Shown in pieces: positions 2,904 through 14,934 of a stretch of 64,000 nt of DNA; position 1 is the first letter of the stretch; each line of letters starts with the position of its first letter. The position numbers were made by a program, and so were the translations under genes. This stretch comes from a virus, in IMG/VR virus record IMGVR_UViG_3300020057_000001, positions 32,001-96,000 of that record; one strand, 5' to 3'. The notes under the pieces are model-generated. The model saw only the letters and a program-made list of their open reading frames with translations. It had not been told where the DNA came from and did not search any database.

Positions 2904-3230
2904 TTATTGTTTTGGTGAGCCGTTTGCGCTAAAGCGCTTAATCGTTTTACCTAAAGAGCCTGCGGCACTTAGCTCTAGCTGCATGCCATCCGAAGGTGCT
3001 TCGTCGTAGAACGCCCAAAGCTCGTCACAGGTATCTAGAAAGCTCATGCCCGCCACCATACCTAGAATCCGTTCTTCTGGGTTGGTGTCGTCGAGCGCTT
3101 GGGGAAGGTAGGCGTGAGGAGCATAGGGCGCGTAGCCTTGGAGTACTGCTTCGCGACAATACATCAAGGCATTTTTTACATTTCTGTAGGGGTCAGCGGC
3201 AAAGGGCGAACATATAAACACACGTTTCAT
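2904..3230 (-). CDS. DUF4406/nucleoside 2-deoxyribosyltransferase-like Rossmannoid protein
   Basis: VFICSPF, PYAPH, CDELW and S.GM..E motifs. Confidence 0.65.
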   Translation of the reverse strand: MKRVFICSPFAADPYRNVKNALMYCREAVLQGYAPYAPHAYLPQALDDTNPEERILGMVAGMSFLDTCDELWAFYDEAPSDGMQLELSAAGSLGKTIKRFSANGSPKQ

Positions 3231-4018
3231 GTTGAGATTCCCATTAAGTATTCGAAGGCTTTTTCTGCTTGCATTGGAACCACTGCGTTACCGAGTCGCT
3301 TAATTCTGTCCATCCGAGAGGGAACCCCATAAATACCTCTGCCCATAGTGGGCTTAACAATGCGCCCGTTGGCACTGATGAATTCGTGATTTGCTGATAT
3401 TTTGAATTTCGTCCAAGGGGTAAATTCACAAATGCAGTCAGCGCTAGGCTGTTCCTTCGGTACTCTGACGGATGAGCGCCGTCTCTGTAATCCCTGGCTG
3501 CTAACGTCGGATATACTGTAAGCCAGGCAGAACCAACGTTCCCGCTTGTGTGGTGCTCCGACTTCTTGAGCGGATAGCATACACCAGCGACTATCATACC
3601 CTGCCTTGGTAAGTTCTTCGAGCACTCGATCCATTCCCCGTGTTCTGATTGCTGGGACGTTTTCAAGGAATATGAACGCGGGCTTGATCTCTTCGGCCAA
3701 GCGCATGATCTCGAAAAATAATCCACTTCGCTTTCCGTCCAAGATTCCTGCGCCTTTTCCAGCGACGGAGATATCCTGGCAGGGGAACCCTGCGACAATG
3801 ATGTCAATGACGGTGTCGAAGTGTTTTCCGGTGAGTGTAGAGATGTCGTCCCAAATCGGTGCTGCTTTGATGCTTTGATCACCCATTCGTGATAAGAGTA
3901 CAGACTGAGCGTGTCGGTCTTGTTCACAGTAAGCAATTGTGTTGATGTATTCTCTAAGCGCAAGGGTGTTTCCGCCGATGCCGCTAAATAAATCCAAGCC
4001 ATTTAATTTTTCCTTCAT
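3227..4018 (-). CDS. DNA cytosine-C5 methyltransferase, alpha chain (motif IX absent)
   Basis: LDLFSGIGG (I), GFPCQ (IV), ENV (VI), HKRERWF (VIII), LGNAVVP (X). Confidence 0.9.
   Translation of the reverse strand: MKEKLNGLDLFSGIGGNTLALREYINTIAYCEQDRHAQSVLLSRMGDQSIKAAPIWDDISTLTGKHFDTVIDIIVAGFPCQDISVAGKGAGILDGKRSGLFFEIMRLAEEIKPAFIFLENVPAIRTRGMDRVLEELTKAGYDSRWCMLSAQEVGAPHKRERWFCLAYSISDVSSQGLQRRRSSVRVPKEQPSADCICEFTPWTKFKISANHEFISANGRIVKPTMGRGIYGVPSRMDRIKRLGNAVVPMQAEKAFEYLMGIST
3244..4002 (-). CDS. Overlapping alternate-frame polypeptide carrying C5-MTase motif IX (putative beta chain)
   Basis: 252-codon frame nested in the MTase; ends in LLSPLWAEVFMGFPLGWT, matching motif IX. Confidence 0.65.
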   Translation of the reverse strand: MAWIYLAASAETPLRLENTSTQLLTVNKTDTLSLYSYHEWVIKASKQHRFGTTSLHSPENTSTPSLTSLSQGSPARISPSLEKAQESWTESEVDYFSRSCAWPKRSSPRSYSLKTSQQSEHGEWIECSKNLPRQGMIVAGVCYPLKKSEHHTSGNVGSAWLTVYPTLAARDYRDGAHPSEYRRNSLALTAFVNLPLGRNSKYQQITNSSVPTGALLSPLWAEVFMGFPLGWTELSDSVTQWFQCKQKKPSNT

Positions 4019-4030
4019 GCCGCGACCTCT

Positions 4031-5612: not shown

Positions 5613-6386
5613 CTACCTCAGAAGGAGCTGAATATTAAGCTCAAGCCCCCCCGTCGACCAGCCGCCCACGTGGATGCCGACCAATCGCCCAGCACCGTCA
5701 AAAACGGGCGCGCCGCTGGAACCGCCCGCAGCGGCAGCGTCGGTTATCATCGCATTGCTCCAATAGACGCCCCCTCCTGAGTAGCTCTCGTCCGTCACTG
5801 ATCCGGCGGCGAATTGCACATCGTTGGTCAAGTCTAGCGGAAAAGATGCTGTGACAGTCAAATCCCCTAATTTCGGAGCGTAGTCTTTAGATTCGCTGAA
5901 CCCCTGCAACGCAAGTCCCGCAGTGTTCCAAGCGATTCCCGAAATTCGTGTAACGTCGCGCGAGCCATCTTGAAAAGCCGTACCACCCGCGCCTACAAGA
6001 GTTGGGCCGGAGTAGTAGAGCATGTTGGTGCAACCGGAGGTTACATGATGTGCTGTAAGGATTCGCCCGTCGTGTAGTTTTGTCCCTGTGCCTCGCGTCG
6101 CATTTGAAACACATTGCAAGTCAAGAATTGACGCGCGGTTTGGGATAATAGCCTGTAAGATAGAGACCAACGCTGCTGTATAAGATTGACCGTCCTTTCC
6201 TGTAATACCTGTATTTCCTGTTTGACCGTCCTTTCCTGTAATACCTGTATTTCCTGTAATACCTGTATTTCCTGTTTGACCGGCCTTGCCGCTCTCTCCA
6301 GATGGCCCTGGCCTACCGTCCTTACCGTCTGATCCGCACGCTGCGAGAAATAAAGAAGCCAAAGTGTACAAGCGGGGGTAATTCAT
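5613..6386 (-). CDS. Lipoprotein with collagen-like repeat and trypsin-like serine protease domain
   Basis: Lipobox LAAC; Gly-X-Y run (GQTGNTGITGKD)n; LTAHHV and GGSSGAPV catalytic motifs. Confidence 0.85.
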   Translation of the reverse strand: MNYPRLYTLASLFLAACGSDGKDGRPGPSGESGKAGQTGNTGITGNTGITGKDGQTGNTGITGKDGQSYTAALVSILQAIIPNRASILDLQCVSNATRGTGTKLHDGRILTAHHVTSGCTNMLYYSGPTLVGAGGTAFQDGSRDVTRISGIAWNTAGLALQGFSESKDYAPKLGDLTVTASFPLDLTNDVQFAAGSVTDESYSGGGVYWSNAMITDAAAAGGSSGAPVFDGAGRLVGIHVGGWSTGGLELNIQLLLR

Positions 6387-13203: not shown

Positions 13204-14934
13204 GTGACTATGGCGGCGGGGAAAAAATTAACAGCTGAAGACGTAGCAAAAGTCGCACAAGCAAAAAACCCAAACCTGCGCTTGGTCGAGAGTTCTTACG
13301 TTGACTTATCCACCCTGTGCATCTGGGTGGAAGAGGGTTGGGGTGAGTTTGAGCGAAAGCCTTCTATCATTCTTTATTCGAACAGCGTGTATCACCCTGA
13401 ACACGGCAGGTTGCGTAAAAATGCAATTTTGGCAAAAGCGCAACAAAAACCGGAAAGCAAACAAAAGCGTAAAACCACTAACCTTGCCAAGTATGGACAC
13501 GAATACATTTCACTCTGCCCACATGTACGTAGTAAAGTTTGTGCAACTAACTTAGAACGTTACGGTCATGAAACCCCGCTTTTGAACGCCGACGTTCAAG
13601 CTAAGATTAGTGCAACTAACTTAGAACGCTACGGTCATGAAAACCCCCTTTTGAACGCCGACGTTCAAGCTAAGATTAGAGCAACTAACTTAGAGGCGTA
13701 TGGCGTAGAAAACGTCCTGTCGAGTAGTCTTATACAAGACAGAGTAAAGACTACTAATCTACAGCGCTACGGGTTTGCAAACGCTGTGCAAGCCGAGGCG
13801 GTTCAGAGTAAAACGAAAAACACTAATTTACAGAGGTATGGCGCTGAATACGGTCTGTCAAACCCTGATGTGCAGCGTAAACGGAGACTTACTAACGTTG
13901 CGCGCTACGGGTCTGCGCACGCTACATTACACCCTGCGGTCAGAGCAAAACTAAGTGCTACCAATATCGCGCGATACGGCCACCAAAGTAGTTTCGGTAA
14001 TTCAGACGTCCAGAAGAAAATTTACAGAACTAAGATGCTTCGCGGGCTATACAAACAGTCTAAAGGTGAACTAGAACTGAGAGACTTTTGTAAAACACTG
14101 GACCCCGACGCCCGTACAACCATGGCGTATTTAAACAAGAAAGCTTTCCAAATTGATATTTTTCTGCCTTCTAAAAATATATGCATCGAATACAATGGGA
14201 TGTTTTGGCATTCCGAGGGGAATAAAAAAAATTACTCCGAAAAACACTTAGACAAGACGAAAGCATGCGCTTTACAAGACAGACGTCTCATACACATTTG
14301 GGAAACCGAATGGCACAACAAGCGCCCTCAAGTGGAAAACTACATCCGAAGCGTAGCGGGTATTTTTGAAAGAAGGATTCCTGCAAGAAAATGCCTAGTA
14401 AAAGAAGTTACTGATAAGGCGCAAGTTAAAGCGTTTCTTGACAGCAATCACTTATTAGGCGCGTGCCCGTTTTCAAAAGCGGTGGGCATCTTCTTGAATG
14501 AGGAACTCGTAGGTGTTGCTCTTTTGGGGAGGCACCATCGAACAAACGTCCTTAACATTGCTAAGCGATTTGCTTTTTTAGCGGGTGTTCAGGTGATTGG
14601 CGGCGTGAGCCGTCTTACCAAACACCTTTTAGACGTCTGCGAATCCGATTCCCTCGTCACTTGGGCCGATGTCAGGCTAGGAGCGGCGTCGGTCTACACG
14701 TCCGCAGGGTGGACCTTAGATTCCACGTCGCGCCCTGACTATTTTTACTGGCACGAATCTCAAAAAAGAGTTGTTTCAAAGCAGCATTTTAAAGACCACC
14801 GAAAAAGTTCAACCGGTGTTTCCGAAAAAGATTTTGCTAAAACCCGGAGATGCCTACGGATCTGGGACTGTGGAAAACATAGGTTTCGTATCTATAAAGG
14901 CGGAATTCCTACATGCTCGCTTTCATCCCCGTAG
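13204..14934 (+). CDS. Hef-like putative homing endonuclease: TNLERYG repeats, Vsr/PD-(D/E)xK nuclease, C-terminal GNAT-like domain
   Basis: About eight 23-aa TN..RYG repeats; IDIFLP...IEYNGMFWHS; HIWETEW; IWDCG. Confidence 0.7.
   Translation: MTMAAGKKLTAEDVAKVAQAKNPNLRLVESSYVDLSTLCIWVEEGWGEFERKPSIILYSNSVYHPEHGRLRKNAILAKAQQKPESKQKRKTTNLAKYGHEYISLCPHVRSKVCATNLERYGHETPLLNADVQAKISATNLERYGHENPLLNADVQAKIRATNLEAYGVENVLSSSLIQDRVKTTNLQRYGFANAVQAEAVQSKTKNTNLQRYGAEYGLSNPDVQRKRRLTNVARYGSAHATLHPAVRAKLSATNIARYGHQSSFGNSDVQKKIYRTKMLRGLYKQSKGELELRDFCKTLDPDARTTMAYLNKKAFQIDIFLPSKNICIEYNGMFWHSEGNKKNYSEKHLDKTKACALQDRRLIHIWETEWHNKRPQVENYIRSVAGIFERRIPARKCLVKEVTDKAQVKAFLDSNHLLGACPFSKAVGIFLNEELVGVALLGRHHRTNVLNIAKRFAFLAGVQVIGGVSRLTKHLLDVCESDSLVTWADVRLGAASVYTSAGWTLDSTSRPDYFYWHESQKRVVSKQHFKDHRKSSTGVSEKDFAKTRRCLRIWDCGKHRFRIYKGGIPTCSLSSP
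13543..13690 (+). repeat. Near-perfect 69-bp tandem repeat within the TNLERYG array
   Basis: gcaactaacttagaacg...gttcaagctaagattag repeated with period 69. Confidence 0.85.

Follow-up and report, generated by a model that had tools for sequence, protein, structure and literature searches.

Methyltransferases that modify cytosine at C5 are, in their monomeric form (M.HhaI type, PF00145), the products of single-frame genes, and a few have been described that are built from two chains. The closest to the gene described here is M.EcoHK31I (E. coli HK31, YGGCCR), reported by Lee, Kam and Shaw in 1995. Its beta chain is read from a second frame within the alpha gene and is needed for activity; alpha carries motifs I-VIII, motif X and the TRD, and beta supplies only motif IX (PMC2836561, PMC3404938). 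The N-terminal part of this beta chain is described as partly dispensable, with internal Met codons usable as starts (PMC2836561). M.AquI (CYCGRG; Karreman and de Waard 1990) is another two-subunit C5 methyltransferase, naturally divided within its variable region between a catalytic chain and a small subunit holding motifs IX and X (PMC3404938). Artificial fragment pairs of M.SssI, M.HhaI and M.BspRI also assemble their large and small domains from separate chains (PMC3404938).

Here, we examine a phage gene of about 0.8 kb on the minus strand of the window, the whole stretch of 64,000 nucleotides of viral DNA that was analysed. The gene is open in two overlapping reading frames (Table 1). 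The beta open reading frame (ORF) is nested in the alpha ORF on the same strand and covers 252 of its 263 codons; frames 0 and +1 are both uninterrupted along the whole gene, and the +2 frame contains 15 stops. Like the monomeric enzymes, the gene has the same catalytic motifs in the same order on the DNA. Unlike them it is not read in a single frame, since motifs I-VIII lie in frame 0, the TRD and motif IX in frame +1, and motif X in frame 0 again. The locus probably encodes a heterodimeric alpha/beta phage C5 cytosine methyltransferase whose two chains come from the two frames, a reading that draws on the sequence, on structural modelling and on analogy with the known two-chain enzymes.

Table 1. 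Features of the two-frame gene and their positions in the window
Feature	Position	Strand	Remarks
Alpha ORF (P0001)	3227..4018	(-)	Frame 0, 263 aa; motifs I-VIII, non-conserved linker, motif X
Beta ORF (P0002)	3244..4002	(-)	+1 frame, 252 codons, stop-free; leader, constrained segment, TRD, motif IX
AGAGG, Shine-Dalgarno-like	4026..4030	(-)	7 nt upstream of alpha ATG 4018; read from sequence
AAGGA, Shine-Dalgarno-like	4011..4015	(-)	8 nt upstream of beta ATG 4002, inside alpha codons 2-3
Alpha motif I, FSGIGG	3971..3988	(-)	SAM binding
Alpha motif IV, GFPCQDIS	3767..3790	(-)	Catalytic Cys
Alpha motif VI, ENV	3656..3664	(-)	Beta reading of the same bases: SLKTSQ
Alpha motif VIII, QEVGAPHKRERWF	3530..3568	(-)	
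Beta residues 104-165, over alpha motifs VI-VIII	3508..3693	(-)	Both frames constrained at the amino-acid level
Beta hairpin, GMIVAGVCYPL	3568-3600	(-)	Within the dual-constrained segment
Beta TRD hallmark, YPTLAARDYRDG	3478..3513	(-)	Variant of the family WPTPxARDxK
Beta motif IX, LLSPLWAEVFMGFPLGWTEL	3301..3360	(-)	Pattern, codon-phase variability, modelled contacts
Alpha motif X, RLGNAVVP	3275..3298	(-)	

The original prediction had named M.EcoHK31I as the precedent, and its account of that enzyme agrees with the two sources (PMC2836561, PMC3404938). Its proposal that the same design is at work here is supported, with some refinements. The two systems, compared by published layout rather than by sequence, share a beta ORF that lies within the alpha gene in a frame of its own, with motif IX on beta and motifs I-VIII and X on alpha. 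Unlike M.EcoHK31I, in which the TRD is on alpha, the window gene has the TRD hallmarks (WPTP/ARD) on beta, over a hypervariable alpha linker. Its beta frame also differs in being nearly co-extensive with alpha, starting 16 nt after it, and both frames are under constraint in the part of the overlap that covers alpha motifs VI-VIII.

The alpha chain resembles the catalytic half of a known enzyme. It is matched by PF00145 (E 3.4e-39) and TIGR00675 (106 bits, cut-off 100.65), with both matches restricted to residues 6-173 (6-171 for PF00145), which correspond to profile positions 2-166 of about 325, i.e. the first half. PHROG 363 (phrog_363) matches alpha from end to end (E 5e-61), so a family of short enzymes of this build exists. 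Motif I occupies alpha residues 11-16 and is invariant across 27 homologues, and GFPCQDIS, ENV and HKRERWF (motif VIII, QxRxR) are invariant or nearly so. Of the TRD, motif IX and motif X, alpha retains only X on the polypeptide that carries I-VIII. Neither motif IX nor a conserved TRD was found in alpha in the homologue alignment, and both were located in the +1 frame. The linker between motifs VIII and X cannot be aligned among homologues, and its length varies from next to none up to about 200 residues, yet it stays open. The first reading of the locus, a main frame with motifs I, IV, VI, VIII and X, without motif IX and with little TRD, thus holds for the 263-aa frame, as does its nested frame at 3244..4002 of 252 codons without a stop, here placed on the minus strand; the TRD-like and motif IX segments attributed to that frame were found exactly as quoted.

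The beta chain has no match in Pfam, NCBIfam or PDB sequences by profile search, and the likeness of its motif IX to solved enzymes is therefore one of pattern only. This motif (LLSPLWAEVFMGFPLGWT) is recognised by its pattern and by modelled contacts to motif X, and by no HMM. Among gene calls, 60 full-length beta homologues were found (E down to 1e-52), and these carry no Pfam domain except for P0028, a frame-switched chimera. Beta residues 100-240 match 1497 cluster representatives. P0028 aside, there are no in-frame fused relatives among the 60 hits or the best 150 of the 1497 representatives, and the seven longer (338-527 aa) and three short beta-matching representatives among those best 150 lack PF00145. 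Beta homologues conserve WPTPxARD and LNPxWVEWLMGYPxGWTEL over the stretch of the alpha linker, and the PTL.ARDY subtype of the window beta is shared with L087, L090 and P0307. When beta is modelled alone, the mean pLDDT is 59, residues 1-78 have no secondary structure, and motif IX is predicted as a helix with a pLDDT of 92.

The openness of the +1 frame is not due to chance. In 5000 synonymous-codon shuffles of the window gene (GC 48.5%) that kept the alpha protein and its codon usage, the +1 frame contained a mean of 8.9 stops and a minimum of 3. The window gene has one, which is beta's own terminator, and this was reached in 0 of 5000 shuffles. The same holds across the family. We collected 80 viral loci solely by alpha homology, and nearly all have a +1 frame that is open over most of the gene, with roughly 10-27 stops in the +2 frame in most of them. 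Stops were counted by region in 73 loci and compared with expectations from synonymous shuffles. There are 55 +1 stops where 130 are expected from the start to motif IV, 1 against 172 from motif IV to motif VIII (stop-free in 72 of 73 loci), 2 against 92 over the linker and TRD-IX, and 72 against 79 from motif X to the end. The +2 frame of these loci contains 257 stops in IV-VIII and 390 in the linker and TRD-IX. The +1 frame is therefore kept open across the family from before motif IV to after motif IX, although the loci are mutually related and the locus counts are not independent events. This openness persists at 33-57% alpha identity and in phages of Gram-negative, Gram-positive, actinobacterial, Bacteroides and cyanobacterial hosts. 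The original prediction had named loss of the open second frame in homologues as one result that would refute it, and the outcome is strongly in its favour.

Codon-phase variability shows which frame is under selection in each part of the gene. In gap-free alignment blocks of motifs IV, VI and X, frame-0 position 3 is the most variable (1.38, 1.24 and 1.52 bits, respectively). In the motif IX block, the most variable position is beta position 3, which is frame-0 position 1 (1.00 vs 0.45 and 0.46). The selected phase thus switches to the +1 frame at motif IX. The window gene and its two closest relatives differ by 15 and 20 changes in TRD-IX, which are too few alone for a phase preference.

Over alpha motifs VI-VIII, both frames are conserved at once. 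From motif IV to the TRD, the conservation of each beta residue was compared with an analytic null computed from pooled synonymous codon usage and the alpha residues. The excess over this null is modest as far as about beta residue 100, and from about residue 104 many positions lie far above it. Examples, as observed over expected conservation, are G135 (0.99/0.19), P132 (0.88/0.29), Q117 (0.81/0.25), W113 (0.80/0.32), T115 (0.91/0.59), Y106 (0.54/0.07) and P163 (0.69/0.20); these column counts come from related loci and are not independent. The value for G135 means that the codon of alpha Gly140 is GGG in nearly every locus. About 60 codons are therefore constrained in both frames. Synonymous sites appear to have had time to change, judging by alpha identities of 33-57% and by entropies of 1.2-1.5 bits at third positions.

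A two-chain structure prediction, which the original prediction had proposed as a check, agrees with a complex. The predicted alpha-beta complex has an ipSAE of 0.89, and the best of three controls scored 0.00. Among 80 solved complexes, 58 reach the ipSAE mark used, as do 2 of 110 mismatched pairs; these figures apply only roughly here because our own alignments were used. Three runs agreed in at least 80% of contacts, with a partner pLDDT of at least 61. In the model, beta motif IX (residues 213-235) lies against alpha motif X (238-249) and alpha residues 35-58, and beta 133-140 lies against alpha 141-147. The model supports binding of alpha to beta. Since monomeric C5 methyltransferases are solved, this pass may instead reflect likeness to those enzymes rather than binding of the alpha-beta pair.

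Some of the segments that meet in the model share their coding bases. Alpha 142-145 is paired with beta 135-137, both encoded by the same nucleotides (window 3585-3600, minus strand), and alpha 221-237 and beta 213-235 likewise pair though they are encoded by the same nucleotides.

Taken as a two-chain enzyme, the gene would work as follows. Frame 0 would give alpha, the catalytic and SAM-binding large domain with motifs I-VIII, a linker that is merely kept open, and motif X. The +1 frame would give beta, starting in the window copy most likely at ATG 4002 behind its own AAGGA, with a weakly constrained and probably disordered leader of about 100 residues. Beta would then form a small DNA-recognition domain from the segment over alpha VI-VIII, the PTL/ARD TRD and motif IX, and would dock on alpha with motif IX against motif X, completing the enzyme, so that both chains would be needed for methylation.

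The position at which beta translation would begin varies among relatives. In the window, beta ATG 4002 lies 16 nt after alpha ATG 4018, with no stop downstream of it. When starts in the 80 loci were mapped with motif IV/VI anchors, a 5' start codon in the +1 frame was present in 62 (54 ATG, 5 GTG and 3 TTG), preceded in 51 of these 62 by a Shine-Dalgarno-like tetramer. The most frequent arrangement is ATGAATG, with the two starts 4 nt apart. The alpha residue above the beta start varies (N, H, R, C or F), and where it is Asn it is coded AAT in 51 of 51 cases, compared with 41% elsewhere in the same genes. In the remaining 18 loci, the open beta frame begins no more than 10-31 codons ahead of motif IV, and short called beta ORFs (155-168 aa) begin just before the shadow of motif IV or of motif VI. 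In the closest relatives of the window gene, L087:561-1358 and L090:367-1140 (79% alpha identity), a stop interrupts the +1 frame at codon 19 or 11, with the TRD and motif IX almost unchanged. The 5' start used in the window is thus not universal, and it must have been gained or lost recently within this small clade. Together, the late-opening loci, the early stops, the short ORFs and the unstructured residues 1-78 indicate that the beta start is evolutionarily labile and that the first 70-100 residues of the window beta are probably a leader.

Two smaller observations concern the same 5' region. L087 and L090 read IRCLDLF where the window gene has LNGLDLF. In addition, stop-start coupling from the upstream gene was considered as a means of beta initiation and rejected, since that gene is itself read in frame 0 and the TAA immediately ahead of the beta ATG arises from the alpha Leu-Asn codons.

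This lability is also what gives weight to the best of the alternatives, namely that translation of the window beta starts mainly at an internal codon and not at ATG 4002, the 5' open frame not being needed. Candidate starts are a GTG at beta codon 41 and an ATG at codon 136, after AAGGCAGGGT. The stops in L087 and L090, the 18 late-opening loci and the short called ORFs all fit such a start, as does amino-acid constraint on beta that begins near residue 104. M136 is kept in 62% of loci, compared with 31% expected, and M.EcoHK31I beta used internal Met starts (PMC2836561). Against this, the window ATG has AAGGA 8 nt upstream and no later stop, and a 5' start with its biased AAT codon is kept in 62 of 80 loci. 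In no locus does the frame open only just before the TRD, IV-VIII being stop-free in 72 of 73, and M136 is missing from the Lc-Nu and Paenibacillus copies. We consider a mainly internal start unlikely.

A further alternative retains a single chain, made by programmed frameshifts of +1 after motif VIII into TRD-IX and of -1 before motif X. It would account for the DNA-level order I-VIII, TRD-IX, X, which is that of a conventional enzyme. Such an enzyme would require neither a +1 frame open over IV-VIII (1 stop against 172) nor a frame 0 open over the linker, and both are kept. Furthermore, the 5' +1 start codon is conserved, and no conserved slippery site or in-frame stop was seen at either junction. 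We know of no precedent for two efficient frameshifts in one gene. A variant locus also speaks against it. In L039:1276-2386 (IMGVR_UViG_3300031578_000112), alpha ends after motif VIII, and the +1 frame contains the TRD and motif IX followed by a second copy of the junction in alpha phase (EPDVPRM...ALGNAWVP) and motif X. The IX/X junction appears to have been duplicated, with one copy read per phase, so that motif X is on beta and the junction overlap is gone. This layout is explained only by a two-chain design. Its division of motifs, with I-VIII on alpha and TRD-IX-X on beta, is like that of M.AquI; the window gene, unlike M.AquI, has motif X on alpha and two co-extensive ORFs. Double frameshifting is poorly compatible with these data, and we regard it as very improbable.

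Three of the 80 loci look broken: an indel inside motif IX swaps frames in L028, there is one stop in the alpha linker of L045, and there is one in the beta hairpin of L067. These could be pseudogenes or assembly errors. The least tenable reading, in which the +1 frame is untranslated, as a by-product of composition or the relic of a frameshifted pseudogene, with alpha working alone or dead, could point to these members and to the absence of beta from curated family libraries, and is equally poorly compatible with the data and close to negligible in probability given an open frame reproduced in 0 of 5000 shuffles and conserved at 33-57% alpha identity across phages of diverse hosts, a codon-phase signal on the +1 frame at motif IX, and an alpha without motif IX or a conserved TRD.

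The heterodimeric reading, which we prefer, may reach far beyond the window. More than 6700 relatives of alpha were found at E<=1e-10. Six cultured phages were examined, namely Salmonella S9-5, Acinetobacter ABMM1, mycobacteriophage Che9d (gp80), Paenibacillus Paisley, Lactobacillus Lc-Nu (ORF40) and Bacteroides BS162P3, and the same +1 frame, including PTP and MGFPxGWT segments, occurs in all six. Each record contains one CDS only, in line with the expectation that annotation would miss the beta chain. We lean towards the view that the members of this whole, very large phage and prophage C5 family are obligate heterodimers whose genes are dual-coding over nearly their full length. If so, the start of the beta recognition domain would have arisen by overprinting on the alpha catalytic motifs VI-VIII, and amino-acid selection would act in both frames on 60 or more codons. 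Few conserved same-strand dual-coding stretches in dsDNA phages would be longer, and annotation would lack the beta subunits throughout the family. A description of this family-wide two-frame layout was not found in the literature searched, a result that describes the library searched and is no proof of novelty.

If beta is real, short phage cytosine methylases are currently half-annotated, with a DNA-recognition subunit that is invisible to gene callers. This would affect virome enzymes as well as cultured phages of mycobacteria, Salmonella, Acinetobacter, Paenibacillus, Lactobacillus and Bacteroides, and predicting the specificity of phage anti-restriction methylases would require reading the +1 frame. 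This family would be a natural and widely replicated system for two proteins that share one sequence, including a dual-constrained stretch. The pair of start codons 4-16 nt apart may set the subunit ratio. The family also offers natural heterodimeric scaffolds for split-methyltransferase tools, such as those built from M.EcoHK31I.

The window is phage DNA, with genes for a helicase, virion proteins and an HNH endonuclease. Directly upstream of the C5 gene (4031-4561, minus strand) lies a candidate phage Dam-like N6-adenine methyltransferase of 176 aa with DPASD and NPPGG, which has weak, below-cut-off profile matches (PF05869, E 1.3e-5; TIGR01712, E 2.6e-4). With this Dam-like candidate next to it, the putative C5 enzyme most likely serves to shield the phage DNA from restriction by the host.

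Other features of the neighbourhood were also observed. The Dam-like candidate and the C5 gene form a methylase pair. On the other side, at 2904-3230 (minus strand), a DUF7768 protein (E 4.7e-33) has an ATGA overlap with the alpha stop codon (3227-3230), which suggests that it is translationally coupled to alpha; the beta frame ends 14 nt before this overlap. Further away, a 257-aa protein (5613-6386, minus strand) combines a lipoprotein-like N-terminus with collagen-type G-x-y repeats (PF01391) and a trypsin-like peptidase domain (PF13365), a domain combination that is unusual for a phage genome. Finally, a large HNH/homing endonuclease (phrog_3339, E 1e-93) is encoded among the virion genes at 13204-14934 on the plus strand.
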